Origin: Centroscyllium fabricii | Taxonomy: Eukaryota | Direction: 5' to 3' | DNA: 64,000 nucleotides | Assembly: GCA_051313645.2 (NCBI GenBank) | Contig: JBNRSN020000026.1 | Coordinates: 48,484,001-48,548,000, forward strand | Part shown: positions 3,515-58,600 of the stretch, piece after piece | Layout: every line of letters starts with the position of its first letter | Position numbering within the stretch: position 1 is the first letter of the stretch | Notes under the pieces: model-generated | Database searches by the model: none | Told to the model about the DNA's origin: nothing | Seen by the model: only the letters and a program-made list of their open reading frames with translations | Translations under genes and position numbers: made by a program

Positions 3515-3692
3515 GTCAGATCAATGACCTTTCATCAGAACTGGAAAAAGTTAGAGAGGTAACAGATTTTAAGCAAGTGCAGCAGTAGGGGAAGAGAGGG
3601 GTGGGGGGGAGGAAAGAACAAAAGAAAAGGTCTGCGATAGGGTCGAAGACAGGAGAGATAAATGACAAAACATCAACAGCAGCCTGCACCGC
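3515..3692 (-). mobile_element. Penelope-like pseudo-LTR remnant with partial hammerhead core
   Basis: The minus strand reads CTGATGAAAGGTCATTGATCTGA, similar to the Penelope-type core at 10011. Confidence 0.45.
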
Positions 3693-3694
3693 TT

Positions 3695-14903: not shown

Positions 14904-16858
14904 ACACCGGAGCTAACACCCTCTCTTAACCTTGCACAAGAAGGAACCCCACCAGCGCTATTTAAAGAGATCATCACCTACTCACAGGTTAGTTGCTGAT
15001 TGATTTCTATTAGCTGTTGCTGAGTTTGCCGAAGGTTTTGGTGCTTTCTAGACTTCTTTAAAGTTGCCTAAAACCTACAAGGCGTGATGTGGCACGTCCT
15101 CAAGGACTTGGCACTGACTTGCAAGGTTTCGGCTCAGGCCAGTTGCTCCCAGGCATGGGTGCAGTAGTTTGCAGCCCCCTTGGCCTGCAGTATGACAGGG
15201 AATACGAGCAGGACATGCTGCTCGAAGAGGCAGGAGAAGGTGGAGAAGAAGGGCTCTGAGCAGGAGGCCATGTCCACCCAGGGTCTTCAGCGAGCAATAC
15301 TCCTACCTCAACCTCAGCGAGGAACAGTGTGCATGACGTCTCAGTTTTACTAAGGAGGTGCTCAATGAAATCTGCCACTCGCGAGGATGGAGGCGGGGCA
15401 TTGACATAACAAGCAGCAGTCCCGCCTCCAACTCACCTCCATTCACATAATCCAGCCCATGGTGTCCTCCTCACAACTTGCTTTCCCACCAATCTTTGCA
15501 ACGCCAGCAAATTTGGCTACAGTACACTCAGTCCCTTCATCCAAGTCATTAATATAGATTGTAAATAGTTGAAGCCCCAGCTCTGATCCTTCTGGCACCC
15601 CACTAGTTACAGTTTGCCAACCTGAAAATGACCTTTATATCAAGAGGGTTTGAGTATAGGAATAGGGATGTCTTGCTGCAGCTGTACAGGGCCTTGGTGA
15701 GGCCACACCTTGAGTATTGTGTGCAGTTTTGGTCGCCTCATCTGAGGAAGGATGTTCTTGCCATGGAGGGAGTACAGCGACGATTCACCAGGCTGATACC
15801 TGGGATGGCAGGAATGACTTATGAGGAGAGATTGTGTAGTCTGGGCTTATACTCGCTGGAGTTTAGAAGATTAAGAGGGGATCTCATCGAGACTTATAAA
15901 ATTCTGTCAGGCCTGGACAGGTTAGATGCAGAAAGGATGTTTCCGATGGCGGGGGAGTCGAGAACCAGGGGGCATAGTCTAAGGATAAGGGGTAAGCCTT
16001 TTAGGACTGAGATGAGGAGGAAATTCTTCACACAGAGAATGGTGAACCTGTGGAATTCTTTGCCACAGAGGGCGGTGGAGGCCGGTTCATTGAATATATT
16101 CAAGAGGGAACTGGATATATTTCTTCAGGCTAAAGGGATTAAGGGATATGGGGAAAAGGCGGGGACGGGGTACTGAACGTGTAAGATCAGCCATGATCTC
16201 ATTAAATGGCGGAGCAGGCTCGAAGGGCCGAATTGTAACGGTTGATGGTAGGGCCCAAATGCAAAACACCGGAAACCAGCGTAGAAGTAAAATTCCTTTA
16301 TTTTCGAGTCGTCAGAAGATATAGAAACATAAAGTCAATAACTGCAGTAAGTTCACGGAGACAAACAAGTCCAAACCAGAGTTCAGGTAATATAGAGTAA
16401 CAAGTCCAAACCAGAGTTCAGGTAGGAGAGAGCAATAAGTCCAAATACAGAAACAGTAATTCTCCAGGTGGTCCGCTTCACCGAAGGGACAAACTCCAAC
16501 ACAGAGTTCCAGCAGAGTAGAATCCAATTCTTCTGTAAGCAGGTCAGTAACACAATTCGACTGGATCAGAGAGCTAGGAACAGAACACATGTATCACAGT
16601 AACAGAATTAACGATCTGGCAAACTCCTGGTGCAAGGTGGAAGCTTATAAACAGCTCAAGATCTTATTGGTTAATTAGGGCTGTCCAATCAGGTGTATGC
16701 AGTAGTAAAAGAGGTACTGGCCAATTTAAAGGAGAAGAGACCACCTAGGATTTAAAGGGGAATCCAACCTATGACAGAACCCCCCCTCAAGGGGCGACTC
16801 CTGACGTCCCAAACCCCAAATGCCGGAATCGGGTGGGTGGAGGGGTGCGGAGGAGGAA

Positions 16859-19800
16859 CTAACAGTCCTCGGGGCCCTCCTCCATGTCTATCTCATCACA
16901 AGACTGAAGGGAATCTTCCTCATTAGCAGAATCTACCTCCTCGTTCAGGGTTTCCAGAGACTGCACGGAACCGGACCCTTGTCCAGACTCCCCAGGGGTC
17001 GCAGTCCTCTTACTTGGCTGGTCGGGATGCCTCCTGTGAAAATCGACAATGAGTTGAGGATCCACTATGTGGCGAGCAGGAACCCAGGACCTCTCTTCTG
17101 GACCATACCCCTCCCAGTCCACCAGGTACTGAAGTCCTCTCCCTCGACGACGGGAGCGAAGTAGGCGACGAACAGTGTAGACCAACCCACCGTCGAGCAT
17201 ATGAGGAGGTGGAGGGGGCGCGGCAACAGGCACCAAAGCACTCTCACGTGCTGGCTTGATTCGTGAGACATGAAATGTGGGATGAACTCGCATGGATTGA
17301 GGGAGCTTGAGTCTCACCGCAGCTGGGTTGATGATCTTCTGGACCTCGAAGGGTCCAATAAAACGGGGAGCAAGCTTCTTCGACTCCACTTGGAGAGGCA
17401 GGTCCTTAGTGGAGAGCCACACCTTCTGCCCAGCCTGATATTTAGGAGCCTCCGAACGACGACGGTTGGCAGCAGCCGAGTATCGATCCGCCGAGCGAAG
17501 CAACAAAGTCCGAGCCTGGTCCCATGTTCAGCGACAATGCTGAATAAATGCCTGGACGGACGGACAGGAAACTTCCCTTTCCAGGTCCGGAAACAATGGA
17601 GGCTGGAATCCATAGGAGCACTGGAACGGGGAGAGTCCGGTGGCGGAACTGGTCAGAGTGTTGTGAGCGTATTCTACCCACAGGAGTAACTGGGACCAGG
17701 AAGAAGGATTCTGGGAGACCATGCATCGGAGCGCCTTCTCCATCTCTTGATTCATCCGTTCTGACTGCCTGTTGGTCTGTGGATGAAAACCCGACGACAG
17801 ACTGACTGTGGCCCCGATCAGACTGCAGAACTCCCTCCAGAATACAGATGTAAACTGAGGACCCCGATCGGAAACTACGTCTAAAGGAAGCCCATGAAGC
17901 CGGAAAACATGTTGTAGCATGAGTTCAGCTGTCTCCTTCGCCGAGGGCAGTTTAGGCAGAGGTATGAAGTGGGCCATCTTGCTGAATCGGTCCACCACAG
18001 TCAGGATCGTGGTTAGTCCCTTGGATGGAGGCAGACCGGTAACAAAATCCAAGGATATGTGGGACCAAGGACGATGTGGTATCGGCAGAGGTTGCAGAAG
18101 ACCAGCAGGGGCCCGACGAGACGGCTTGTGTTGGTTACATACCGAGCAGGCGTTGACAAATTCCCGGGTATCCTCCTCCAGTGTATCCCACCAGAACCTC
18201 CGCAATATAACTTCCTTGGTCCTTTGAGCCCCCGGATGGCAAGAAAGCTTGGAAGCATGGGCCCACAGGAGAACATCAGGTCGAAGGTCCGTGGGAACGA
18301 ATAGACGGTCGGGAGGACAACCGCTGGGTCCAGCCTGATCCTCCACGGCTGATCTCACTCTCTCCTCGATCTCCCACGTAACCGCAGCAATAAGACAAGG
18401 AGCTGGAAGGATGAGGTCAGATCCAGGAGCGGGGCCCTCCTCCTTCTGGAACTGGCGGGACAGAGCATCAGGCTTGACGTTGCGGGAACCAGGCCTGTAG
18501 GAGAGGGTGAAGTTGAAACGTGTAAAAAAGAGAGACCACCTAGCCTGCCGTGAATTCAACCTCTTGGCCGTGCGAATATATTCCTGGTTTTTGTGATCAG
18601 TCCATACTAGGAACGGCAGCTTGGTCCCCTCTAGCCAATGGCGCCACTCCTCCAATGCCATTTTGACCGCCAGTAACTCCCGGTTCCCGATGTCATAGTT
18701 CATCTCAGCCGGGGACAGGCGCTTGGAAAAATAGGCACAGGGATGTAGCTTTTGGTCTGAAGCCGAATGTTGAGACAGAATAGCTCCTACTCCAACATCT
18801 GATGCGTCCACCTCTACCACGAACTGCTGATCCAGATCAGGCACCTGGAGAACGGGAGCAGAAGTGAACCGGGACCTGAGATCTCGAAAAGCCTTCTCCG
18901 CTGCAGGAGACCACAGGAACGGCACCCTTGAGGAGGTAAGAGCCTATAACGGAGCCGCTACCGTACTGTAGCTACGAATGAACCGTCGATAAAAATTGGC
19001 GAATCCCAGAAACCGCTGTAGTTGTTTGCGTGTCTCAGGAATAGGCCATGACGCAACAGCTGACATCTTCTCTGGATCCATCTGCACGCTCCCCTGCGCA
19101 ATGATGTACCCCAGGAAAGAGACGGTAGTGACATGAAATTCACATTTCTCTGCCTTCACGAACAATGAGTTCTCCAGGAGCCGTTGTAGGACCGTCTGGA
19201 CGTGGTGAACATGCTCCTCCTGAGATTTGGAAAAGATTAGAATGTCGTCCATGTACACAAACACAAACCTATTCAGCATGTCACGTAAAACATCATTAAC
19301 CAAGGCTTGGAATACCGCCGGGGCGTTGGTTAACCTGAACGGCATAACGAGGTACTCATAATGTCCAGAGGGGGTGTTGAAAGCAGTCTTCCATTCATCG
19401 CCCTCTCGTATCCGGACCAGATGATAAGCGTTACGAAGATCCAGCTTTGTAAAGATGGTCGCCCCCTGTAGCAACTCAAAAGCCGAAGAGATGAGAGGAA
19501 GAGGATACCGGTTCTTCACCGTAATGTCATTAAGGCCCCTGTAGTCGATGCATGGTCGCAGCGACCCGTCCTTCTTGCCCACAAAAAAGAATCCAGCCCC
19601 AGCTGGTGATGAAGAGGAACGTATGATCCCCGTCGCCATAGAGTCACCGATGTATGTTTCCATGGCCTCCCTCTCAGGTGCAGACAAAGAATACAGACGT
19701 CCCTTGGGTGGGGAAGAACCTGGCAGCAAATCAATGACGCAGTCATAGGGGCGATGTGGAGGCAGCGACGTGGCTCTAGCCTTGCTGAACACCTCCCTAA

Positions 19801-20341
19801 AATCATGGTATTCGGTGGGGACCACTGAAAGATCTGAAGCGGGAAGAGGTGTTACTGGCTGTCGGAAGACGGTAGCCTGTTTCAGACAGACCTGGTGACA
19901 GGAGGAACTCCACCCCAAAATAGCTCCCGTGTTCCAGTCAATGTGAGGGTTGTGGCGGCGAAGCCAAGTGTGTCCCAGAATTAAAGGAGGCCGAGGTGAT
20001 TTCAAGATATGAAATTGAATGCTTTCATGATGATTCCCAGACAGAAGCATATGAACCGGTGAGGTCTGATGTGTCACCGTTCCCAGGAGGTGGCCGTCTA
20101 GGGCGTTGGCAGGAACCAGCTGTGGCAGTGGCACCCGGTCAATTTCCAGCTGTGTGACCAGATCTTCATCGATAATGTTGACGTCCGCTCCAGAGTCAAT
20201 AAAGGTGACGAGAGTCTGGGATCCACTGGGGAGAAGAAGTCTGGCCTGGCACAAGGGTCGTGGATTGGGAGAGAGTCTTGTAGGAGTTCGACTCACCAGT
20301 ACGACTCCATCTACTGGTGAGTCCGGTCTTTTGCTGGGCAT
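16859..20341 (-). pseudogene. pol: Pol (protease, RT, RNase H, integrase, chromodomain) with two in-frame nonsense codons
   Basis: [38 protein letters not shown] and [16 protein letters not shown]. Three same-frame ORFs are separated by TAG (18944-18946) and TGA (17528-17530). Confidence 0.92.
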
Positions 20342-21258
20342 TGGGAAACAAAATGGCCGGCCTGACCGCAGTACAAACAGAGATTCCCCTTGCGGCGTCG
20401 TTTATGCTCCACCAATGAGATACAGGTGCGACCCAACTGCATTGGTTCGGGGCCCACTGGCTCTGACCCTGCTGTCGCAGTATTCCTGGGCGCCACGAAT
20501 ATCTCTTGAGTCCGTTTCGGAGGATGTCGACCAGTCGTTCCCAGTAGTCTCTCACGTCGACGCGCCTGGATATGGAGATCGATCCTGGTGGCAAGACTAA
20601 TTAGTTCATCCAGGGTGGAAGGGAGATCATAGGAGACCAGTTCATCCTTGATGCAGCCTGCAAGCCCATGAAGAAAAATGTCACATAATGCAGCCGAATT
20701 CCAATTACTCAGATGAGCTCTGATTCGGAAGTCTATTGAGTAATCAGCAACTGTCTGATTGCCCTGGCTCAGATTCATGAGTCCCCGAGCTGCTTCAGAG
20801 CCGAAGGTTACCATGCCGAACACCTTTCTTAATTCGGTGGCGAATCCCTTGAAAGAAGAGCAAGCCTGAGTCTCTCTCCCCCACTTGGCGGTTCCCCAAA
20901 GACGAGCTCTTCCTGTGAGGTGGTTAATCACAAAGGCTACCTTTGCCGTCTCATTGGCAAAGGTGCGGGGCTGCAATGAAAACAGAATGGAACAGTTAGT
21001 GAGGAAGGGATTACATTGCTCAGGTTCACCGACTCGGGGTTCGGGTGTGAGACCTTGTAGGTGAGGCATGGGTGCCGACACCGATGCTGGAGCCGGGGCT
21101 GGTGGTGGTGAGATCCCTGCCGGATCCGACGCTACCCGCAGGTTCCAGGCGACGGTTAGCTGCTCCAATTGAGTGAATATATTCCCCAAGGCCTGCCCCT
21201 GGTGTAATTGGGCGCCCTCGACCTGTGCCAGATGCTTTGGTGTGTCTGCTGGGTCCAT
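20311..21258 (-). CDS. gag: Gag (sushi/PEG10-like capsid with CCHC zinc knuckle)
   Basis: Starts MDPADT just after the PBS; EPMQLG and [14 protein letters not shown]; overlaps pol in a different frame, consistent with a frameshift. Confidence 0.88.
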
Positions 21259-21874
21259 TCTTGGCCAGATCGTTCTGTAACGGTTGATGGTAAGGCCCAA
21301 ATGCAAAACACCGGAAACCAGCGTAGAAGTAAAATTCCTTTATTTTCGAGTCGTCAGAAGATATAGAAACATAAAGTCAATAACTGCAGTAAGTTCACGG
21401 AGACAAACAAGTCCAAACCAGAGTTCAGGTAATATAGAGTAACAAGTCCAAACCAGAGTTCAGGTAGGAGAGAGCAATAAGTCCAAATACAGAAACAGTA
21501 ATTCTCCAGGTAGTCCGCTTCACCGAAGGGACAAACTCCAACACAGAGTTCCAGCAGAGTAGAATCCAATTCTTCTGTAAGCAGGTCAGTAACACAATTC
21601 GACTGGATCAGAGAGCTAGGAACAGAACACATGTATCACAGTAACAGAATTAACGATCTGGCAAACTCCTGGTGCAAGGTGGAAGCTTATAAACAGCTCA
21701 AGATCTTATTGGTTAATTAGGGCTGTCCAATCAGGTGTATGCAGTAGTAAACGAGGTACTGGCCAATTTAAAGGAGAAGAGACCACCTAGGATTTAAAGG
21801 GGAATCCAACCTATGACACGAATGGCCTACTCCTGCTCCTATCTTCTATGTTTCTATGTTTCTATGTTTATTCT

Positions 21875-24692: not shown

Positions 24693-25561
24693 ATGATTTG
24701 ATTGTAGTGGCCCAGAAATTCGGGTCTCCATGGGTGAGTACGCACAGAGTACCCACCCGTATGCTCAACAAAAGTGCTGGTTTCATGCATGCACTGCGCA
24801 AACACGGGAAACCGGAACTTCCGTTCCCTTAAATGAAGGGGTTCAGAGGTCGAACGCGTGCACAGGAGAGGCAGCACATGTGGCTGGAGCGTACGTTTTT
24901 TTTTCAGCTTTCTCTGGGAGGGTAAGTCTCCAGTAGTTACACTTTTTAAAAGTAGGCGCAAGGCCTGCTTTTAGCAAGGTAAGTGGTGAATTAATTAATA
25001 TTAAAACATTTTTTCCACAGGTTTATTATTTTTAAATACTTTAACATAGAAACATAGAAACATAGAAGATAGGAGCAGGAGTAGGCCATTCGGCCCTTCG
25101 AGCCTGCTCCGCCATTCAATGAGATCATGGCTGATCATCCAAACCCAGCACCCTGTCCCTGCCTTGTCCCCATATCCCTCGATCCCTGTAGAGCCTGCAC
25201 CGACACATATCCCACCCTATCCCCGTAACCCCACATATTCAATCCCCCTAACACTAAGGGTCAATTTATCATGGCCAATCAACCTAACCAATGTGGTAAC
25301 CCTTGTATATAGTTGTTTACCAGTGTAATTATTGTACCAATAATGGGCTGTGCAGATGTAAGGCACAGCCCTGTATACTGTGTAATACTGTTGGGAGCCA
25401 GGTCAGCCACACCTCTAACTCCTCCCCCAGGTGAGGCCCTTTATAGGTGGAAACTGACCGAGGCTCCTCATTCCTGTACAGAAGTTCGTCCGGAGGGTAG
25501 CTCCGTTCTTTTAATCTGAGGTATTGACGATACGTCAATTTTAATCGCTAAATATTTTAAA

Positions 25562-28500
25562 ATGGAGAGCAGCGCAGTCAAACCTGAGAAGCTGGACATC
25601 AGCCCCCAGGACCTGGCCGCTGCTACCACATTCGAACACTGGTTCGGCCTCCTGGAGGCCTACATGGACACCGCCAAGGCTACATCGGCCAGGAACAAAC
25701 TGCAGGTCCTCCGGTCGAGGATCTCCAGCAGGGTATTCTCCCTCATCAGGAACGCCTCAACCTACACAGCGGCCGTACTACTACTACGAAAATGCTACGA
25801 GCGCCCGGTCCACTCGGTCTATGCCCGACATGTGCTTGCGACCAGATCTCAGCTACCGGGTGAGTCCAATGAGCAGTTCGAGCAAGCGCTCCAGGCCCTG
25901 GTACGGGTCTGTGGCTGCCAAGCCAGAACAGCTGAAGAGGAGGCGGAACTCCTCATTCGGGACGCTTACGTTACGGGACTAAGGTGCGTGGAAGCCCGCC
26001 AGCGGCTACTGGAGAAAGACACTCTGTCCCTCGAGGAGGCGACTAAGATAGCCAAATCAGTAGAGGGGGCCCGAAACAAGTTACAGGCGTACAGCGGCAC
26101 TAACCCGCAAGCCTACGACATTTGGGCCGCGCCACAACGGGCCCAGGCCTGGGCAGCACCACAACGGGTCGAGACCCCCACGATGGCTGCGACAGCCACA
26201 AAAGATAAGCGCTGCTACTTCTGCAGCCAGGAACTGCACCCAAGAGCGAGATGCCCGGCCAGGACAGCGACCTGCGAGAGATGCGCTAAGAAAGGTCATT
26301 ACGCTAAAGCCTGCAGATCAGCTCCAGCAGCGCCTAACCCAAGGTACAACAGTGCAGCCTGTGAGAGCACCGACAGACACCAGGTAAGCTGCAATAGCAG
26401 TGCGATCCAGCGACGGTCCGGGGGTAGACAACAAGCGCCCCCATCTCCCACCCCGATGCGGCAAAGGCCGGCCAAGCGCGACCCCCCAACGCGGCCGGCT
26501 GCGTACGAATCACGGGCACCGCCAACCGGATCACCGCGGTCCGCTGCGTGCAAATCACGGGCGCCGCCAGCGCGCTCACAGCGGCCCACCATGTGCGACC
26601 CCGCGGCGAAGCCATTTTGTATCCAGGGCCCCTCCATGTGCGAGCCAGGGGCGCCGCCATTTTGTATCCAGGGCCCCTCCATGTGCGGGCCAGGGGCGCC
26701 ACCATTTTGTATCCAGGGCCCCACCATGTGCGAGCCAGGGGCGCCGCCATCTTGTGTACAGCCCCGACCAGCAAGGGCCCCACACACACGGAAACGCACG
26801 GCTGCGGCAGCCAAAATCAGAGTGAACCAGGACAGGCCACATACCCTGTCTAACTCTATAATGCCAATTTTGATTCACGGCTACACGGTTAACTGCCTTT
26901 TTGACAAAGGAAGCACTGAGAGTTTCATACACCCCGATACAGTGCAGCGCTGCGGAATGCAGGTCCGGCCCACTAACTACCAAGTCTCCCTAGCTTCACA
27001 GTCCCACACCGCAGACGTCACCGGCTACTGCTCCGTCGCGCTCACTGTCAAGGGGCGCGTGTACCGTAATTTTAAATTGTATACCCTCCAGCAGTTGTGT
27101 GCCCCAGCCTTACTTGGTTTGGATTTCCAGTGCCACCTCAAGAGCGTGACAATGGAGTTCGCTGGGACCTTGCCCCCCCTCAAAGTCAGTAGCCGGGACA
27201 ATCCCTTCCCAAAGCGGAGCCCGGCCTGCGGCCTCTCCACCCTGAAAATCGAACCCCCCTCGCTGTTCACCAACCTCGATCCGAAGTGCAAACCCATTGC
27301 TACTAAGAGTCGGCGGTACAGTGAGGGGGATCGCACGTTTATCAGGTCGGAGGTCGGGCGGATGCTGAAGGAGGGGATAATTGAAGCCAGCACCAGCCCC
27401 TGGCGCGCCCAAGTTGTAGTGGTGAAGTCTGGCGAGAAACAGCGGCTGGTTATCGATTACAGCCAGACTATCAACCACTACACCGGGCTCGACGCCTACC
27501 CCCTTCCCCGCATCTCAGACATGGTCAACCAGATCGCCCAGTACAAGGTGTTCTCCACGATCGACCTTAAATCGGCGTATCATCAGCTCCCGATTCGGAA
27601 AGCCGACCGCCCCTACACCGCCTTCGAGGCGAACGGTCGGCTCTACCACTTCCTCCGGGTCCCCTTTGGCGTGACCAACGGAGTGTCAGTGTTCCAACGG
27701 GAGATGGACCGCATGGTTGACCAAAATGACTTGCAGGCCACTTTCCCTTACCTGGACAACGTGACCATCTGCGGCCACGACCAGCAGGAGCACGATGCCA
27801 ATCTGGCCAAATTCCTCGACGCGGCGGACAAGCTGGACCTTACGTATAACAAGGACAAATGTGTCTTTAATATAGACCGGCTCGCCATCCTCGGATACGT
27901 GGTGGAGAACGGGGTCCTCCCACAGCGTATGCGACCCCTGCAAGAACTGCCCCTACCTCACAACCCCAAAGCCTTGAGGAGATGCCTAGGATTTTTCTCC
28001 TATTATGCACAATGGGTCCCACAGTTCGCAGATAAGGCTAGACCACTCCTCAAGGCTGCCATCTTCACCCTTTCTGTAGAAGCCCAAACGGCATTCGCAA
28101 GGATAAAGGAAGATATTATCAAGGCGACCATGCTCACTATTGATGAATCTATCCCTTTCCAGGTGGAGAGTCACGCTTCAGACTTTGCCCTTGCTGCCAC
28201 CCTGAATCAGGCAGGCAGGCCCGTAGCGTTTTTCTCCCGCACCTTACAGGGACCCGAAACTCGCCACTCCGCAGTGGAAAAGGAGGCCCAGGCCATCGTG
28301 GAGGCCGTGCGCTACTGGCATCATTACCTGGCCGGTAAGTGTTTTACCCTGCTCACTGACCAACGGTCGGTGGCGTTTATGTTTAATAATAAACTACGGG
28401 GTAAAATCAAGAATGATAAGATCCTGCGGTGGCAGATCGAACTCTCGACTTACGAGTATGACATTCTTTACCGACCAGGTAAACTCAATGAACCCCCAGA

Positions 28501-29779
28501 CGCACAGTCCAGGGGAACATGCGCCAGTGCCCAGCTAGACCGGCTGAAGGACCTCCATGACCGCCTTTGCCACCCGGGTGTCACCAGACTCGCCCACTTC
28601 GTTAAGTCCCGTAGCCTCCCCTACTCCATCACGGAGATCAAGGCTATGACCCGAGAGTGCCCTGTCTGCGCCGAGTGCAAACCCCACTTTTTCCGGCCAG
28701 ACACGGCGCACCTCATTAAGGCCACCCGCCCCTTTGAACGTCTCAGCGTGGACTTCAAAGGCCCCCTCCCTTCCACCGACCGCAATTCATACTTCCTCAC
28801 GGTAGTGGATGAGTTCTCCCGCTTCCCCTTCGCCTTCCCCTGCGCAGATATGATGAGCGCAACGGTGATCAAACACTTCACCACGCTGTTCGCCATTTTC
28901 GGTCTCCCCAGCTACATCCATAGCGACCGGGGGTCATCGTTCATGAGCGATGAACTGCACCAGTTTCTGCTCCAGAAAGGGGTTGCCACGAGCAGAACGA
29001 CCAGTTATAACCCCCGGGGGAACGGCCAGGTAGAAAGGGAGAATGGGATCATTTGGAAGGCGGTCACCCTGGCTCTCAAGTCCAGAGGCCTTCCAGTGTC
29101 CCATTGGCAGGCAGTCCTCCCAGACGCGCTGCACTCTATACGCTCTCTATTATGTACTGCTACTAACGCCACCCCGCACGATCTGATTTTCTCCTTCCCT
29201 AGGAAATCGACTTCGGGGACAGCTCTTCCTCCATGGCTGACGACTCCGGGGCCGGTTTGGCTTAGAAGACATGTCCGGAGCCACAAGACAGACCCCCTGG
29301 TGGACAAGGTACAGCTCCTACACGCGAACCCCCACTATGCATTCGTGCAGTTCCTGGACGGGCGTGAGGACACCGTGTCCATCAGGGACCTGGCTCCCGC
29401 AGGAAGCACCACCGCAGAGCCCCTGGCCGGCCAGCAGGCCGCTCAGCCGCGGTATCCAGAAAACTCACCAGACACACGATGGCCCCCGAGCTTCCCAGAA
29501 CAGTGGCCAGTACAGAACTACGACCCGGACGGCGGGGACCAGCCAGATCCATCGCCACCAGAAGCCACGGCACCCGATCAGTGGTCACCACCGGCAGATG
29601 CAAGTGGTACGAACCAGGAGGCACCACCACCAACACCGGAACGCCGGCGGTCCTCCAGGCAGACACGACCGCCGGACAGACTGATCATGAACTGTTCGGC
29701 CCATTCACCCCCCCCCCCCCCCCCCCCCCCGGACTTAAAATTTTCAAGAAGGGGTGAATGTGGTAACCCTTGTATATAG
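25562..29779 (+). CDS. Gag-Pol polyprotein (two CCHC knuckles, protease, RT, RNase H, integrase); open but probably defective
   Basis: CYFC…HPRARC, CERC…HYAKAC, LFDKGS, YLDN, HHCC and VDFKGP/SDRG. RNase H reads VESHASD and ENGVLPQR, versus VESDASD and ENGVIGPDPQR in the sister copy. Confidence 0.85.
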   Translation: MESSAVKPEKLDISPQDLAAATTFEHWFGLLEAYMDTAKATSARNKLQVLRSRISSRVFSLIRNASTYTAAVLLLRKCYERPVHSVYARHVLATRSQLPGESNEQFEQALQALVRVCGCQARTAEEEAELLIRDAYVTGLRCVEARQRLLEKDTLSLEEATKIAKSVEGARNKLQAYSGTNPQAYDIWAAPQRAQAWAAPQRVETPTMAATATKDKRCYFCSQELHPRARCPARTATCERCAKKGHYAKACRSAPAAPNPRYNSAACESTDRHQVSCNSSAIQRRSGGRQQAPPSPTPMRQRPAKRDPPTRPAAYESRAPPTGSPRSAACKSRAPPARSQRPTMCDPAAKPFCIQGPSMCEPGAPPFCIQGPSMCGPGAPPFCIQGPTMCEPGAPPSCVQPRPARAPHTRKRTAAAAKIRVNQDRPHTLSNSIMPILIHGYTVNCLFDKGSTESFIHPDTVQRCGMQVRPTNYQVSLASQSHTADVTGYCSVALTVKGRVYRNFKLYTLQQLCAPALLGLDFQCHLKSVTMEFAGTLPPLKVSSRDNPFPKRSPACGLSTLKIEPPSLFTNLDPKCKPIATKSRRYSEGDRTFIRSEVGRMLKEGIIEASTSPWRAQVVVVKSGEKQRLVIDYSQTINHYTGLDAYPLPRISDMVNQIAQYKVFSTIDLKSAYHQLPIRKADRPYTAFEANGRLYHFLRVPFGVTNGVSVFQREMDRMVDQNDLQATFPYLDNVTICGHDQQEHDANLAKFLDAADKLDLTYNKDKCVFNIDRLAILGYVVENGVLPQRMRPLQELPLPHNPKALRRCLGFFSYYAQWVPQFADKARPLLKAAIFTLSVEAQTAFARIKEDIIKATMLTIDESIPFQVESHASDFALAATLNQAGRPVAFFSRTLQGPETRHSAVEKEAQAIVEAVRYWHHYLAGKCFTLLTDQRSVAFMFNNKLRGKIKNDKILRWQIELSTYEYDILYRPGKLNEPPDAQSRGTCASAQLDRLKDLHDRLCHPGVTRLAHFVKSRSLPYSITEIKAMTRECPVCAECKPHFFRPDTAHLIKATRPFERLSVDFKGPLPSTDRNSYFLTVVDEFSRFPFAFPCADMMSATVIKHFTTLFAIFGLPSYIHSDRGSSFMSDELHQFLLQKGVATSRTTSYNPRGNGQVERENGIIWKAVTLALKSRGLPVSHWQAVLPDALHSIRSLLCTATNATPHDLIFSFPRKSTSGTALPPWLTTPGPVWLRRHVRSHKTDPLVDKVQLLHANPHYAFVQFLDGREDTVSIRDLAPAGSTTAEPLAGQQAAQPRYPENSPDTRWPPSFPEQWPVQNYDPDGGDQPDPSPPEATAPDQWSPPADASGTNQEAPPPTPERRRSSRQTRPPDRLIMNCSAHSPPPPPPPPDLKFSRRGECGNPCI
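26591..26760 (+). repeat. 45-bp coding tandem repeat (~3.7 units) between Gag and protease
   Basis: Unit ATGTGCGAGCCAGGGGCGCCGCCATTTTGTATCCAGGGCCCCTCC encodes MCEPGAPPFCIQGPS. Confidence 0.9.
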
Positions 29780-31939
29780 TTGTTTACCACTGTAATTATT
29801 GTGACAATAATGGGCTGTGCAGATGTAAGGCACAGCCCTGTATACTGTGTAATACTGTTGGGAGCCAGGTCAGCCACACCTCTAACTCCTCCCCCAGGTG
29901 AGGCCCTTTATAGTTGGAAACTGACCGAGGCTCCTCATTCCTGTCCGGAGGGTAGCTCCGTTCTTAGCGATTAAAAGCCTTTAGTTTCGGTAACTACTCG
30001 TCAACTCTTTTAATCTGAGGTATTGACGATACGTCAACCCGCACATCTTTGAAAGAAAGGTAAGACTTTTTAGCTCCGTTATTTCAAAAATTTAAATTAT
30101 TGTTTAAAATAGTTATTTTATGTAATTCATAGTTATTTTAAAAATGTGATTTTTTTAAAAATGTATTTGAAGTTTTAGTTATCTTTTGGGGCTTATCGTA
30201 TTTATAGTTCTGACAGCTCTTCCTGTCAATTTTATGAATGGGCATTCCCTGCTACCATTGGCTCTCCATGGCCCCCGTGATCCCAGGGGACGCTTCGAAC
30301 TAACTGCACCCCTGGGATACGCAAGCACTGCACGCCGGCAGTTGGAGGTGGCCCAGAATCGGAATCCCACGCGGGCCCACAGCTCAATGGCCGGTGCGCA
30401 AGCTAAGTGCAGGTTGGAGGCTTCAACACGCGGGAAGCGTCTGACCCGAATTTCCGGGCCATTGTATATTTGCAATGAAATGAAGTTTCCAAATATGCAA
30501 ACAGCTCAGCCTGAAACATATGCTCAACTTTGTTGTGTTTCCTACACATCTGCTTTGTGAATATTTATTTAGGGCTGGCCATACTTGAAAGGAATTAAAT
30601 ATAAACAGCACTCAGTTTGAAATATCATTTATATAGAACAGTGTTTGTACTGGGAACAACAGTCAAAGCAATTTGGGAAGCAGATTGCGTGACTCGTGAG
30701 CTTTTAAATATTTCAAAAGCTTCTTTAGAATTTGAGCCTTATAACTGTCTATTGTATGTTATAATTAAAGCATACTTCACTTCTGCAAATTCTATCAAAT
30801 TTGTTTTCATTTGTTTTTTTTTAAATGAGTCTTTTTTATTAAAATATCATTTAACTCCAAGAGTATGGAGTTTTGTGCTGTAAATCCTTGCACAATGGGA
30901 ACTCAATTGAGACGACCCAAATTTATTTTACTCAGGACGCCGAGTAGCGATTAGGAGGAGCAAACCAGAATCCCGAAGGCGATTGATTTTAAACTTTAGG
31001 GCGGGCAATTGGCGGAGCAGGCCCGTTCCATGGGTGAAGAAGACGGAGCCATTTTGCGGGCCAGCCCTTATTTAAAATGGAAGCTGCGAGCTGAGGGCAC
31101 CAAAGGTGGGAGCCTGGGCCGGTAGCAACCCCGATTTACATATTAAATGGGGCCTGCCGCTTGAAGCAGGCAGGCGCATTGGCCACCCAGTGGTAGGCCC
31201 CTCTAAAAGTGGCAGTGGGCAGACCATCGCCAACAACAGGACGGCGAGTCTACTGACTCCAGTTTGGGGCCATTACTGACCAATTGCCGATTTCAGCAAG
31301 TTAAAATTGACCACCGTGTGTCCGGCCTTGGTTTTAATACAGGATCCACAATTTAAAGAACTGTTCCTTCTAACCCACTACACCAGACCTGTGTCTTTTA
31401 CTTTTACTTTAACGCATCTAATGAGTGTTAACATGTGAAATTAAAACTGCTGACTTGCTAAAGCTTCCAGATCTACCATGAATTGATGGTTTTAAGATTG
31501 CAGGGTTCAGTAACTAGTATAAATGAAAGAAAGACTTGCATTTATATAGCGCCTTTCACGACCGCTGGACGCCCCCAATGAAATATATTTGAAGTGTAGT
31601 CAAAGGCAGGTACGGGGTACTGAGTTTGGATGATCAGCCATGGTCTCATTGAATGGCGGAGCAGGCTCGAGGGGCCGAATGGCCTACTCCTGCTCCTATC
31701 TTCTATGTTTCCATGTTTCTATGTTGTAATGTATGAACACGTCGATAAGAGTATGTCACCTGTATAATGACTTAGTTGATTCCCTGGTATTGTTTTGCTT
31801 CTAAACCAAAATAAAGTTGTGATGGGTAAAAATTCTAGAGTGAGCTGGAGAAAGTGCCTGTGTAATAATAATGCTGAGGGTGAGTAGTTGATTTTGGCTT
31901 TAAGAGGTCCTAAAGCTCAGTCCTGATAATCAAGTTCAC

Positions 31940-44384: not shown

Positions 44385-45485
44385 CAATAATGTAACATAT
44401 CAAAGTTTGCAGATGATACTAAGATGGGAGGGAAAGTGGTGAATGAGGAGGACATAAAGAACCTGCAGGGGGACATAGACAGGCTAAGTCAGTGGGCAGA
44501 GATTTGGCAGATGGAGTACAATACTGGAAAGTGTGAGGTGATGCATTTTGGCAGGAAAAATCGTAGCGCGGATTATTATCTTAATGGCAAGAAACTGGAA
44601 AGTACTGTAGTACAAAGGGATCTGGGGGTCCAGGTGCACGAAACTCAAGAGGTTAGTATGCAGGTGCAGCAAGTAATTAAGACAGCCAATGGAATGTTGG
44701 CTTTCATTGCTAGGGGGATAGAATATAAAAATAGGGAGGTATTGCTTCAGTTGTACAATGTATTGGTGAGACCGCACCTGGAATACTGCATACAGTTTTG
44801 GTGTCCATACTTAAGAAAGGACATACTCGCTCTCGAGTCAGTACAAAGAAGGTTCACTCGGTTAATCCCAGGGATGAGGGGTTGGACATATGAGGAGAGG
44901 TTGAGTAGATTGGGACTCTACTCATTGGAGTTCAGAAGAATGAGGGGTGATCTTATTGAAACATATAAGATTGTGAAGGAGTTGGATCGGGTGTATGCGG
45001 GGAAGATGTTCTCAATGATGGGTGAAAAAAGAACTAGGGGGCAAAAACTTAGAATAAGGGGCTGCTCTTTCAAAACCGAGATGAGGAGAAAATACTTCAC
45101 TCAGAGGGTAGTAGGTCCATGAAACATGCTGCCCCAAAAAGCTGTAGAAGCTACATCATTACATAAATTTTAAACAGAAATAGACAGTTTCCTAGTAGTA
45201 AAAGGGATTAAACGTTACGGGGAGCGGGCAGGAATTTTGACATGAGTCTAGGTTCAGATCGGTCATGGCCCTGTGGGTAGTGGAGCGGGCCCAGCGACTG
45301 TGTAGCCTGATCCTGCTCCTATTTTGTGTGTCGAATTCTGTTAGATGCAGGAGATGCTTCTGTGATAGTTGTTAGGATCAGATCAGCCATGATCTTATTG
45401 AATGGCGGGGCGGGCTCAAAGGGCCGATTGGCCTACTCCTGCTCCTATTTCTTATGTTCTTATGTTCTTATGTTCTTATGTTCTT
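44385..45485 (+). mobile_element. CR1 LINE 3' fragment with duplicated tail
   Basis: KFADDTK…RPHLEYC ORF 44424-45122; two successive tail stem-loops; (TTCTTATG)n. Confidence 0.9.
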
Positions 45486-46059: not shown

Positions 46060-48515
46060 TGACGTATTGTCAATAATACACAAAGACGAATAGTTACCTC
46101 AACTAAAGGCTTTTATTAACTATAAACTGAGCTGGTACAGAGCTGGTCTTTGGCTGGGCTCAGGACAGGAAATGACTGGGGAATGGTGAGCGGCCACCTC
46201 TCTACTCCGACCTGAGGGGAGGAGTTAGAGGCGGGGTCAGTTCCTGCAGCCAGGTATCTACAGGTATATACAATTACAAGCATTACCACAGTAGGGTCCC
46301 TTACGGTACAACAATATATACATAGTGGTAAATGCAGGATTAGCACATTCACCCCTTCTTTAAAAATGAGTCCAGCGGGGTGAATGTGTGTCAACATTCA
46401 GCAATAAGTCTCTCAGGTGGCCTCGTCTGCCGAAGGGACCGGCGGGGTGCCGGTAATGGTGATTCCGCCCGCGGGATCAGGGGTGTGATGTCAGTCATCG
46501 GTGCCGGCGGCGGTCTGTTGGTCCCCTCGTCATCGGCTGGTGGAGTCGAGTGCCCTGGTGCGTGTGTGTACGTGGGCCAGCGGCCGGTTGGTGGTGGCTG
46601 GTAGAGCTGGGGCTCGGCCGGGGATTCAGTGTTCGTGATCCCGGCGGGCGCCAGGTCCCTGAACGAGACTGTGTCTTCGCGCCCGTCTGGGTATGTCACG
46701 TATGCGTAATGCGGGTTGGCGTGGAGCAGGTGCACCCGTTCCACCAGGGTGTCTGTCTTGTGACTGCGGACGTGCTTCGTAAGCAAGACCGGCCCCGGGG
46801 TGGTCAGCCACAGTGGGTGTTCAGTCCCCGAAGACGATTTCCTAGGAAAGCAAAACAATTTATCATGAGGTGTGGCATTGGTGGAGGTGCACAGCAGAGA
46901 GCGGATGGAATGGAGCGCGTTGGGGAGGACCTCTTGCCAACGGGAGATTGGAAGGCCTCTGGCGTGGTGAAGTGTTTTATCACCGTCGTGCTCATCATGT
47001 CTGGGCAGGGGAATGCGAAGGGGAAACGGGAGAACGCGTCGATGACCATGAGGAAGTACGAGTTGCGGTCGGTAGAGGGGAGGGGACCTTTGAAGTCCAC
47101 ACTCAGGCGCTCGAAGGGGCGGGTGCCCTTGATGAGGTGCGCTCTGTCCAGCCTGTAAAATCGGGGTTTGCACTCGGCACAGAGAGGGCACTCACTGGTC
47201 ATAGCCTTGATCTCCGAAATGGAGTAGGGGAGGCTGCGGCACTTGACAAAGTGGGCAAGTCTAGTGACACCCGGGTGGCAGAGGCTATCGTGGAGGGCCT
47301 GCAGCCGGTCGAGCTGGGCGCTGGCGCACGTTCCCCTGGACAGGGCGTCCGGGGGCTCGTTGAGCTTACCGGGCCGGTAAAGAATGTCGAACTTGTAAGT
47401 TGAGATTTCGATCCGCCACCGAAGGATCTTGTCATTCTTGATTTTACCCCGTTTGTTAAACATAAACGCTACCGACCGTTGGTCGGTGAGCAGGGTAAAT
47501 CTTTTACCGGCCAGGTAGTGGCGCCAGTAGCACACTGCCTCCACAATAGCCTGGGCCTCCTTTTCCACTGATGAATGGCGAATTTCGGGTCCCTTTAGGG
47601 TCCGGGAGAAGAACGCAACGGGCCTGCCCGCCAGGTTGAGGGAGGCAGCGAGGGCAAAGTCCGATGCGTCGCTCTCCACCTGGAAGGGGATGGACTCATC
47701 AACGGCGTGCATGGTAGCCTTGATGATGTCTCCCTTAATCAGGGTGAAGGCCGTTTGGGCTTCTGCCGAGAGTGGGAAGACGTCAGCCTTGAGAAGAGGC
47801 CTGGCCTTATCCGGGTACTGGGGCACCCATTGTGCGTAATAGGAGAAAAACCCCAGGCATCTCTTCAAGGCTTTGAGGTTGTAAGGTAAGGGCAGCTCCT
47901 GCAGGGGGCGCATACGTTGGGGATCGGGGCCGATGACCCCGTTTTCCACCACGTAGCCGAGGATGGCAAGCCGGTCCGTACTAAATGTACATTTGTCCTT
48001 ATTGTACGTCAGGTTCAGCCGTTGGGCCGTGCGAAGGAATTTGGCGAGATTGGCATTGTGATCCTGCTGGTCATGGCCGCAGATGGTCACGTTGTCCAGG
48101 TAGGGGAAGGTGGCCTGCAACTCGTTCTGGTCAACTTTGGAAGACGGACACTCCGTTAGTAACGCCGAAGGGGACCCGGAGGAAGTGATAGAGCTGACCA
48201 TTCGCCTCGAAGGCGGTGTACCAGCGGTCTGACGCCCGGATGGGGAGCTGGTGACTCGCCGACTTAAGGTCAATAGTGGAGAAGACCTTATACTGGGCGA
48301 TCTGGTTGACCATATCCAAGATTCGGGGGAGTGGGTACACGTCGAGACCAGTGTAGCGGTTAATAGTCTGGCTATAGTCTATGACCATGCGCAGTTTCTC
48401 GCCTGTCTTAACCACCACGACCTGGGCCCTCCAGGGGCTGGTGCTGGCCTCGATGATCCCTTCCCATAACAGGCGTCGACCTCCGTCCTGATAAACGCCC
48501 GGTCTCCTGCCACCC
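46060..48515 (-). mobile_element. 5'-truncated Gypsy element, sister of 25292-30036 (RT-RH-IN plus 3' LTR ~46060-46347)
   Basis: Frameshifted ORFs 48131-48418, 46804-48273 and 46391-47191 are highly similar to 25562-29779; PPT AAGAAGGGGTGAA; LTR ends TACGTCA. Confidence 0.92.
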
Positions 48516-55611: not shown

Positions 55612-58600
55612 TCTGTACCTGGGGGTATTAGTGCATGAATCACAAAAAGTTAGTATGCAGGTGCAGCAAGTGATTAGGAAGGCCAATGGAGTCTTAGCCT
55701 TTATTGCTAGGGGGATAGAGTATAAAAGCAGGGAGGTCTTGCTGCAGCTGTACACAGTATTGGTGAGACCGCATTTGGAATACTGTGTGTCACAGGGGGC
55801 CTGTTCCTTTAAGAATGAAGAACAGTTTTTGCTGTGCTTCACAGCTGTTTTGAGGACTGGGTTTCCCTGTTATGTCGTTAATTATTCTATTATCTGTCTA
55901 TTGCTAGTTGTGTCCTGCTCTCATTGCCTCCAAGTTATTGGCTATCACCAAAGGGTTTGCTTGCTGGTTTTAGTTCATAAACTGGAGGTAGGCTTGAGAG
56001 CAGCGCGGGATCATTGTATTGTATGGTATGGTATGGTATTGTATTACTGAACTGGACTTCTACCACACATTCTTCAGGCCACTGGACGAGGTGGTTACTG
56101 CTGCTGTGCTGAGTGGCCGTCAGAGGCAAGGAGGTTTGGAGATCGACTGACTCAGCCTTTACTTTGCACTCTGCTATTTCAGGTGCTCAGGCTGAGTTGC
56201 CCGACAGGGGCATTGGGGTGGAACTCATATCACTCTGCCTTGACAGTGCGCCCTGCTATCGGGAACCCAGCAATGGACAACTCATATGTGGAGTAAGGGC
56301 GTTCCCCTGCTTGTGGATCTGAATCCACTACTTGGACATTCGTTTTCTGTTTCATCCGAACCCAGGTTTGGACATTGGATACCTGTATGCAGAAGCTGTT
56401 CCCAAATCCTCTACGAAGTATTTGGATTGTGATGTCCTACTCGCAGAGGAGAACTTGTTCGTTTCTCTTTAAGTATTTGGATTGTGATGTCCTGCTTCTA
56501 GAGGAGAGCTCGTTTAAGTTGGACAGTTATGCCTGGACTTGTATTCCTCGGGAGAATGACGCGCTTGGTTGCGTGGCACCCCTCTATCCATTACTCACTA
56601 TTTTGGGAAGTCTGTGCCAGTCTTTAGATAAGACTTGTGTCCAATATGTTTCTTATATAATTGTATGTTTATGCTATTTTATGGGGTTGTGTAATAAAGG
56701 AGTTTAGTTATAAAGGACGTTTCAGTGTCTCTGCATTTGGACCCCGCCCTCATTCCGTTTACACCATTCCGTTACAGAATGATCCCGCCAAATTTGGGGC
56801 TCAGCAGACACTGTAGCGTCTAAGCACTCCTTAAAATTTTTTTTTTGTAGACTGTTGTCTCTTCTCTGTACCCTCCGCCCACCCTATTTCGGCATATTGG
56901 GTATTTGGGCCGTCGCCGTCGGCCCTTAACGGGGGGGTCCTGTCACAGGGGGCCTGTTCCTTTAAGAATGAAGAACAGTTTTTGCTGTGCTTCACAGCTG
57001 TTTTGAGGACTGGGTTTCCCTGTTATGTCGTTAATTATTCTATTATCTGTCTATTGCTAGTTGTGTCCTGCTCTCATTGCCTCCAAGTTATTGGCTATCA
57101 CCAAAGGGTTTGCTTGCTGGTTTTAGTTCATAAACTGGAGGTAGGCTTGAGAGCAGCGCGGGATCATTGTATTGTATGGTATGGTATTGTATTACTGAAC
57201 TGGACTTCTACCACACATTCTTCAGGCCACTGGACGAGGTGGTTACTGCTGCTGTGCTGAGTGGCCGTCAGAGGCAAGGAGGTTTGGAGATCGACTGACT
57301 CAGCCTTTACTTTGCACTCTGCTATTTCAGGTGCTCAGGCTGAGTTGCCCGACAGGGGCATTGGGGTGGAACTCATATCACTCTGCCTTGACAGTGCGCC
57401 CTGCTATCGGGAACCCAGCAATGGACAACTCATATGTGGAGTAAGGGTGTTCCCCTGCTTGTGGATCTGAATCCACTACTTGGACATTCGTTTTCTGTTT
57501 CATCCGAACCCAGGTTTGGACATTGGATACCTGTATGCAGAAGCTGTTCCCAAATCCTCTACGAAGTATTTGGATTGTGATGTCCTACTCGCAGAGGAGA
57601 ACTTGTTCGTTTCTCTTTAAGTATTTGGATTGTGATGTCCTGCTTCTAGAGGAGAGCTCGTTTAAGTTGGACAGTTATGCCTGGACTTGTATTCCTCGGG
57701 AGAATGACGCGCTTGGTTGCGTGGCACCCCTCTATCCATTACTCACTATTTTGGGAAGTCTGTGCCAGTCTTTAGATAAGACTTGTGTCCAATATGTTTC
57801 TTATATAATTGTATGTTTATGCTATTTTATGGGGTTGTGTAATAAAGGAGTTTAGTTATAAAGGACGTTTCAGTGTCTCTGCATTTGGGCCCCGCCCTCA
57901 TTCCGTTTACACCATTCCGTTACAACTGTGTGCAGTTTTGGTGTCCATACTTAAGAAAGGATGTACTTGCCCTGGAGGCAGTGCAGAGAAGGTTTACACG
58001 GTTAATTCCAGCGATGAGGGGGTTGACATATGAGGAAAGGTTAAGTAGGTTGGGACTCTACTCTTTAGAGTTCAGAAGAATGAGAGGCGATCTTATTGAA
58101 ACGTATAAGATCGTGAGGGGCCTTGATCGGGTGGATGCGCCAAGGATGTTTCCAATGATCGGGGAGACTAGAACTAGGGGGCATAGTCTTAGAATAAGGG
58201 GGGTGCTCTTTTAAAACTGAGATGAGGAGAAACTTCTTCACCCAGAGGGTGGTTAATCTATGGAATTCACTGCCTTAGGGAGCTGTGGAAGCGGGAACAT
58301 TAAATAAATTTAAAACCGAAATAGACTGTTTTTTAGCAGACAAGGGAATTAGGGGTTACGGGGAGCAGGCAGGGAAGTGGACCTGAGTTATGGTTAGTAT
58401 AGTGAGACCTGAGTGATCTCCTGGACAAGTTTCGATCGCCTGGATTGGGGTCGGAGAGGAATTTCCCGGATTTTTTTCCCAAATTGGACCTGGGTTTTTA
58501 TCCGGTTTTTCGCCTCTCCCAGGAGATCACACGGTTCTTTGGGTGGGAGAAGGGTGATAGTGGTACGAAGGTTAGGGTAGGATCAGCAATGATCTTGATG

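Follow-up and report, generated by a model that had tools for sequence, protein, structure and literature searches.

The 2,137-bp element at positions 55788–57924 of the window, by which we mean the whole 64,000-nucleotide stretch of the Centroscyllium fabricii genome analyzed here, belongs to a large family of non-coding LTR elements (family A) that is likely a stepwise-deletion derivative of a chromovirus, is likely copied by the Gag-Pol of that helper, and is likely self-primed by 11 nt in the manner of Tf1. We put the probability of this reading at roughly 0.85, with the helper assigned from sequence because of descent and shared ends.

On the forward strand, the element consists of a 989-nt 5′ LTR (55788–56776), a 164-nt non-coding interior (56777–56940), and a 984-nt 3′ LTR (56941–57924), with LTR ends TG...CA. 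As the preliminary description had stated, the two LTRs are nearly identical, differing by 2 substitutions and one 5-nt indel, which is a single unit of the 5-nt microsatellite at 56016–56045. The 6-bp target site duplication (TSD) ACTGTG lies on both sides (55782–55787 and 57925–57930), and both flanks align to one continuous paralogue of the target repeat at 44622–45247 that lacks the insertion; the element is therefore an insertion. Two LTRs, a primer binding site (PBS, AATGATCCCGC, 56778–56788), a polypurine tract (PPT, 56928–56937, 3 nt upstream of the 3′ LTR), and the TSD are all present, together with a likely polyadenylation signal, AATAAA, at 56693–56698, 84 nt upstream of the LTR end (57841–57846 in the 3′ LTR). 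The interior comprises the PBS and a remnant of the gag start, a decayed middle, and a remnant of the chromovirus pol end and 3′ UTR, to which the block at 56850–56939 is 77% identical. The longest ATG frame, of 106 codons, is located within the LTR, three ORFs gave no Pfam matches, and neither ARAGORN nor Rfam returned a match within the element, including any tRNA- or 5S-derived LTR piece of the kind that marks TRIMp3 elements.

Exact patterns counted across the 7.2 Gb genome, where control patterns gave 0 matches, revealed 811 family-A junctions of 41 nt, 3,870 LTR-end/PBS junctions of 18 nt, and 15,323 LTR starts. The interior measured 162–170 nt in 59 of 60 sampled loci (the sixtieth, without the exact junction, had 164 nt), and 161–172 nt in 19 of 20 loci chosen by the 18-mer alone. 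Among 30 LTRs chosen by their start, 12 were solo LTRs with a TSD, 10 were followed by an interior of 159–168 nt, 6 were 3′ LTRs, and the remaining 2 could not be assigned to a structure. A TSD was found in 34 of 44 resolved loci (29 of five bp, 5 of six bp), the other 10 being mostly array units, and tandem arrays occur in the family alongside solo LTRs. The same interior is thus present at many loci with different TSDs, and the suggestion that this is more than a one-off deletion stands insofar as the family is multicopy and amplified, although it did arise by deletion, apparently stepwise and once. Among contigs of four runs compared with the region 55950–57090, none spanned the element; pieces of it were found in three other organisms, and one organism whose contigs matched mostly microsatellite was discounted. 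A fish-gut run also contains the sequence, which, together with the LINE repeats, would fit a fish-like vertebrate host.

LTR-LTR divergence within family-A copies had a median of 0.4% (n = 33), while the LTR subfamilies are mutually 59–99% identical, yet share one interior length and layout; mean identity between five clusters of 62 copies was 77% for the LTR and 88% for the interior. This combination of low divergence within pairs and high divergence between subfamilies indicates that many subfamilies with a single layout were recently active. It also bears on the possibility that an undetected autonomous element shares this LTR and PBS, the short copies being its passive deletion derivatives or its arrays. 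An interior pieced together by deletion from the chromovirus would suit such an origin, the approximately 140 junctions inspected are a sample of 3,870, and for two family-A copies (L277 and L120) no partner LTR was seen in the vicinity. However, one layout recurs under divergent LTR subfamilies at different loci with different TSDs, the LTR pairs of the short copies are near-identical, and no coding interior followed the family-A PBS and no path to gag was found at any of the inspected junctions. The gag ATG, described as lost, is in fact kept at 254 family-A junctions, so that its loss is not family-wide; 30 sampled copies with PBS and ATG open only 6–45 codons, and 29 of 30 sampled ATG-bearing loci had interiors of 159–172 nt. 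We consider passive deletion extremely improbable and retain an amplified non-coding family as the better account.

The likely parent and helper family is represented in the window by a chromodomain Ty3/gypsy element on the reverse strand (16234–21818), which has 543-nt LTRs that differ at 3 columns, a 5-bp TSD, a gag with CCHC, and a PR-RT-RH-IN-SH3-chromodomain arrangement, that is, the Ty3/gypsy order with a C-terminal chromodomain. Two in-frame stops disrupt pol in this copy, and the helper-type junction pattern has 1,187 matches genome-wide. A sushi-type assignment is suggested by the chromodomain, the CCHC motif in gag, the separation of the gag and pol frames, and the self-type PBS. A second Ty3/gypsy family is also present in the window, with LTR ends unlike those of the chromovirus and the mini-elements.

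Alignment bore out the proposal that the leader and the block preceding the PPT are common to the element and the chromovirus: the family-A interior is a mosaic of chromovirus-family sequence, drawn from the leader, from a fragment of protease, and from the 3′ UTR. A second mini-family (family B, 295 junctions), sister to family A, has interiors of 161–173 nt in 29 of 30 sampled copies, assembled from helper interior nt 1–52, 1278–1301, and 4406–4496, and LTRs that are 72–93% similar to helper LTRs across U3-R. The window copy aligns end to end with family B and matches helper interior nt 4409–4499 at 77%. One copy, L162, has a 368-nt interior made of five helper pieces (1–52, 1278–1402, 3758–3791, 3940–3957, and 4347–4496), of which the two long ones are 92–94% identical to the helper, and it shares its first breakpoint with family B. 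This deletion intermediate and family B together link family A to the helper. In a tree of the 3′ block (100 columns), 17 of 18 family-A copies formed one branch (93/92), with family B between family A and the helper; the root of this tree is arbitrary, its bootstraps are unsettled, and the helper 3′ end was not found at 6 of 20 fetched loci. Taken at the level of sequence, family A apparently arose once, by stepwise deletion from the chromovirus family, and probably then underwent long amplification and divergence. A chimeric copy (L181) with a helper-type 5′ LTR and a family-B interior and 3′ LTR suggests recombination, but as its TSD could not be made out, we do not take it as proof of co-packaging.

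The element does not share its LTR with an autonomous element. The family-A LTR resembles helper LTRs in its last ∼50 nt only, the U3 likeness is lost, and LTRs appear to have lengthened from the 543 nt of the helper to about 1,000 nt. Tandem duplications within R were seen in family B and some family-A subfamilies, and are absent in the window copy. The lost U3 similarity, together with the frequency of 6-bp TSDs (5 of the 34 loci with a TSD above and 4 of 12 solo LTRs) and the presence of the second Ty3/gypsy family in the window, could mean that family A is self-primed but now mobilized by a Ty3/gypsy family other than that of its parent. However, the LTR ends, PPT-to-LTR spacer, leader, and 3′ UTR of family A are all of chromovirus type, family B grades into helper LTRs, and the second gypsy family has different ends. 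A change of helper therefore seems very improbable, and mobilization by the chromovirus family remains our preferred reading.

The evidence for priming begins with the PBS, which, as first described, is the exact reverse complement of GCGGGATCATT at 56005–56015, 29 nt after the C of a putative TATA-like box, CATAAA (55976–55981). When the LTR was dinucleotide-shuffled 2000 times, 4 of the shuffled sequences contained a complement of at least 11 nt to the PBS region. The chromovirus has the matching arrangement that had been reported for it, with PBS AACGATCTGGC (21264–21274) and predicted self-primer GCCAGATCGTT (21652–21662), both on the reverse strand, three positions being changed with pairing kept. 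All 11 R:PBS positions were Watson-Crick pairs in 52 of 62 copies of family A, 18 of 23 of family B, and 24 of 30 of the helper. These samples comprised 62 of 90 family-A loci, after tandem duplicates, truncated copies, and unresolved copies were dropped, and 23 of 30 family-B loci, after removal of four array units, two copies without a findable R, and one chimera. The covariation that had been proposed as a check across copies was observed: at R positions 3, 4, and 9, both partners of the pair change between helper, family B, and family A. Because the search patterns predetermined the PBS letters in most samples, the covariation rests on approximately three changes among related lineages rather than on many independent events. 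In 53 of 62 family-A copies, the distance between the TATA-like box and the predicted start is 29 nt, a spacing that was partly preset by regular expression in family B and the helper. LTR subfamilies with about 70–77% identity to the window copy still have the R motif. A MAFFT column test, in which the adjoining microsatellite was misaligned, did not support its conservation (rank 757 of 979 windows).

The absence of a tRNA-type TGG PBS was also corroborated: the first TGG of the window copy is at interior nt 19, and none is present at the LTR edge, which excludes priming by a tRNA CCA end. The best tRNA match to the PBS was at most 6 nt, in a comparison with 31 Lys-TTT and Cys-GCA sequences that covered two isotypes only. 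Another form of trans-priming, by a tRNA fragment or by the 11-mer released from the helper, would leave the element's own R:PBS match as a relic. Half-tRNA priming is described among TRIMs, in fungal Helenus (PMC10886601), the tRNA comparison was confined to those two isotypes, and the primer itself is predicted only. Against this, the LTR edge has no TGG, the helper 11-mer forms only 8 Watson-Crick pairs and one G-U pair with the family-A PBS, R follows the PBS at all three changed positions, and the R motif is kept in the subfamilies at about 70–77% identity. We regard trans-priming as quite improbable and self-priming of the Tf1 type as likely for family A, on the strength of these sequence patterns and of the analogy with Tf1.

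Folding with ViennaRNA was consistent with this interpretation in most copies. The central R:PBS duplex had a probability of at least 0.75 in 12 of 14 family-A, 4 of 7 family-B, and 8 of 8 helper 5′ regions; it was ∼0.6 in two of the 29 folds, and at most 0.1 in three (L094, L117, and L182), where the U5:leader stem formed instead. In the window copy, each R:PBS pair had a probability of 0.84–1.0 across a 770-nt loop, and in the window chromovirus with a longer tail the central duplex reached only ∼0.29. The U5:leader and R:PBS stems cross, and each can form, but ViennaRNA never predicted them together. Both strands of the U5:leader stem claimed for the window element are present (56738–56745 and 56796–56803), with the reservation that one of the two LTR substitutions falls in the U5 strand of the 5′ LTR and breaks one pair; the copy at 57886–57893 is intact. 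In the helper, this stem has an A-C mismatch inside gag codons that is a G-C pair in both mini-families, consistent with RNA selection after coding was lost. Selection on RNA structure likely maintains family A. An alternative cause of the R:PBS match is the copying of an unremoved self-primer, which could preserve the complementarity mechanically and would still imply self-priming.

In the life cycle that we propose, RNA polymerase II would start the transcript at 56005, and the helper Gag would package the RNA via the retained leader and 3′ UTR. Nucleotides 1–11 would fold onto the PBS in a pseudoknotted "pretzel" with the U5:leader stem, the start of the microsatellite immediately 3′ of the primer being predicted to pair with the U5 end. 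The helper RNase H would then cleave after nt 11, the helper reverse transcriptase would extend the primer, the PPT would prime the plus strand, and the helper integrase would insert the product. Recombination between LTRs would yield the solo LTRs and arrays.

The LTRs of some family-A subfamilies are themselves the target of a LINE. Two family-A copies of different subfamilies (L091 and L101) carry one 7.1-kb insert, 98% identical between them, antisense in the 5′ LTR, which encodes an ORF1 with CCHC and an ORF2 with AP endonuclease and reverse transcriptase, a set common to the Tx1 and L1 clades; this LINE may be Tx1-like. An 11-mer to the left of L091 and L101, considered as a helper cDNA end joined to the mini-element, turned out to be the LINE 5′ end. 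Among 68 LINE 3′ ends, all 30 sampled were at LTR nt 106, 29 with an identical 15-mer; 18 of these were outer ends of separate insertions and 12 were array-internal. The sampled 3′ ends thus all lie in one repeat, compared with the more than 20% of flanks in one repeat that defines target specificity in PMC4494074. Of 30 sampled matches to the LINE 5′ motif, 28 adjoined a family-A LTR start and 2 were family-B LTRs. These positions suggest that the LINE endonuclease recognizes the site at LTR nt 106. The targeted 15-mer was found in 1 of 30 unselected LTRs, and the window copy, which has no LINE, differs from it at two positions of the equivalent site (55878–55892); we hypothesize that such target-site variants represent escape from the LINE.

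Insertion of the LINE duplicates LTR nt ∼2–106 (∼105 bp). The duplicated copies differ at nt 24–43 in 8 of 13 pairs, at nt 87 only in one, and are identical in four. An extra base at nt 24, absent from ordinary LTRs, is frequent in the 5′-side copy, and the LINE therefore likely brings along a portion of its target and is joined through homology. A literature search on long LINE target duplications, judged by titles, returned nothing relevant. The first ∼88 nt of the LINE are 91–93% identical to family-B R, and this homology starts exactly at base 1 of the predicted family-B primer, the predicted +1. The LINE 5′ end is thus probably the outcome of one ancestral capture of the 5′ end of a family-B transcript, which would lend indirect support to the predicted start, as would the 29-nt TATA distance for a putative RNA 5′ end at 56005 in the window copy.

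Each of these components has a counterpart among known elements. Tf1 primes with its first 11 bases, which are removed by RNase H (PMC7175516), and a pretzel of three duplexes is described as common to the Tf1/sushi group (10.1101/2022.12.06.519325, PMC6317226). Family A resembles Tf1/Tf2 of S. pombe, sushi-ichi, Tcn1, MAGGY, and Tj1 in having an 11-nt PBS complementary to its own predicted 5′ end, and, as in Tf1/sushi elements, it has predicted flanking U5:leader and R:U5 stems and no tRNA site of the CCA-end type at the LTR edge (PMC7175516, PMC6317226, 10.1101/2022.12.06.519325). Unlike these elements, it lacks gag and pol, has an R-U5 loop of ∼770 nt, and would depend on a helper; self-priming is demonstrated for Tf1, whereas it is predicted for family A.

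The description of the element as a TRIM-like parasite holds in that family A is non-coding and dispersed, but fails on size, given that classical TRIMs are <1 kb with repeats of 100–250 bp (PMC6934838, PMC10886601) and the family-A element is 2.1 kb with ∼1-kb LTRs. Similar to plant TRIMs, Cassandra, PbTRIM, biv-TRIM, and Helenus/Ajax, it has two LTRs, a short non-coding interior, a PBS, and a PPT, and it shares TSDs, solo LTRs, tandem arrays, and thousands of copies with TRIMs and Helenus/Ajax (PMC6934838, PMC10886601). In contrast to TRIMs, its PBS is predicted to pair with its own R rather than with a tRNA, and, unlike the TRIMp3 elements Cassandra, Helenus, and Ajax, its LTR contains no tRNA or 5S piece. 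Vertebrate Helenus (zebrafish LTR-11_DR), as presented in PMC10886601, has thousands of copies, arrays, and priming by a tRNA 3′ end. Like LARDs and intermediate non-autonomous LTR elements, family A is non-coding with long LTRs, but at 2,137 bp it is shorter than LARDs, which exceed 4 kb (PMC13570524). A survey of sugar beet from 2026 treats size as a continuum and applies the name "TRIM" across its whole range (PMC13570524), a broad use that family A fits; the term "self-priming" occurs 0 times in the main text of that survey. Within a search of mostly open-access literature, and as far as the available text of PMC6934838, PMC10886601, PMC7175516, and PMC13570524 goes, no self-priming non-autonomous LTR family is described.

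Two crocodilian Tx1 families are reported to prefer specific LTR retrotransposons (PMC4494074), and the LINE identified here, similar to Xenopus Tx1 in Tx1D and crocodilian Tx1-Mar, Tx1-8_Crp, and Tx1-4_AMi, inserts into another transposon. Compared with the crocodilian and Xenopus Tx1 elements, its target is a non-autonomous LTR element, at one nucleotide position in 30 of 30 cases, and it differs from known Tx1 elements in the ∼105 bp duplicated, in its arrays, and in the captured R segment that serves as its 5′ end. Target details in the supplement of PMC4494074 could make this LINE less novel. Precedents exist for non-autonomous LTR elements, for self-priming, and for Tx1 LINEs that prefer LTR retrotransposons.

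A wider picture, which we advance tentatively and at slightly less than even odds, is that of a three-tier chain. A self-priming chromovirus would be outnumbered by protein-less self-priming derivatives with perfected RNA stems and length regrown by R duplications, and these derivatives would in turn be parasitized by a nucleotide-homing LINE that inserts in U3, has a 5′ end with target sequence on it, makes the ∼105-bp duplication, and drives escape variants. The LINE 5′ end would then amount to a fossil 5′-RACE of the self-primer start.

Every ingredient has precedent, and what is noteworthy here is that the deletion series can be traced, that the changes are compensatory, and that the LINE is site-specific. 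The LINE lends itself to testing as a parasite that exploits another parasite, with an endonuclease that has a defined, non-essential target, and its unusual duplication bears on how LINE 5′ junctions form. In the series of helper, intermediate, and mini-element, natural deletions map which RNA signals a sushi-type element needs, with about 50 nt of leader and 90 nt of 3′ UTR kept. Other non-autonomous LTR elements in the literature searched are tRNA-primed or are presented there without a stated priming mode, and LTR finders based on tRNAs would miss self-primed families. If our reading is true, Tf1-type self-priming would be a portable cis module able to sustain, in a giant genome, a large family that encodes no proteins.

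Sister to the non-coding LTR mini-elements of family A is a second mini-family, family B (L142, L143 and L155-L184 among the sampled loci), which bridges family A and the helper, the chromovirus family that is its likely parent. The family-B interior measured 161-173 nt at the sampled loci with a single exception of 368 nt, its PBS reads AACGATCCGGC with a matching R, its TSDs are 5 bp long, and its LTRs span ~780-1,300 nt, with size gained via tandem repeats in R; 295 family-B junctions were found. The exceptional interior, at L162, contains five helper pieces and is flanked by an LTR 93% similar to that of the helper; this locus is a deletion intermediate. Elsewhere, L075 is a copy with the helper leader and the family-B PBS in which R has changed too, making the change two-sided, and L181 has a helper-type 5' LTR with a family-B interior. 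The family-B LTR at L142 (reverse complement, 615-1338) hosts an insertion of ~720 bp with terminal inverted repeats.

Further LTR subfamilies were found in 10 of 20 loci (L265-L283), including L273 and L275; they resemble the window LTR only patchily and their starts differ, with the PBS and the R 11-mer unchanged. Family-A TSDs are usually 5 bp; among 34 full copies, five have a 6-bp duplication, as do four of 12 solo LTRs. Tandem arrays of at least six LTRs (L124, at 128.87 Mb of contig C224; L106-L111) are bounded by a single TSD.

Nucleotide 106 of family-A LTRs is the antisense insertion site of a 7.1-kb LINE (L125-L154 and L185-L214; copies at L121:2750-10000 and L122:2734-9969), which encodes an ORF1 with CCHC and an ORF2 with endonuclease and reverse transcriptase. 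There were 68 exact matches to its 3' end and 107 hits for its 5' motif, two of the 30 sampled motif hits being family-B LTRs, and copies often lie in ~7.2-kb tandem arrays. LTR nt ~2-106 are duplicated at the insertions, and because the two duplicates differ at nt 24-43 in 8 of 13 pairs, the comparison suggests that part of the target sequence travels with the LINE. An exact 15-mer at LTR nt ~91-106 was the target in 29 of 30 insertions; it was present in only one of 30 LTRs chosen by LTR start (L235-L264), and near LTR subfamilies deviate from it at one or two positions. Such variants are possibly escape variants from the LINE.

The window also holds a second Ty3/gypsy family (25290-29949, forward strand; about 46391-48464, reverse strand) with short LTRs and one frame of 1,419 codons, in which a search for a chromodomain gave no match. 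Many LINE fragments with a short-repeat tail in common (3691-4340, 15629-16233, 44622-45474, 55617-58400 and others) are present, and the chromovirus and the mini-element are each nested within such fragments.

When contigs of sequencing runs X10-X12 were compared with window positions 55950-57090, none spanned the interior; one covers the U5 end, PBS and leader (56727-56821) and another the pre-PPT block (56871-56937). LTR pieces are present in three other organisms. The mini-element family probably predates the Centroscyllium fabricii genome.
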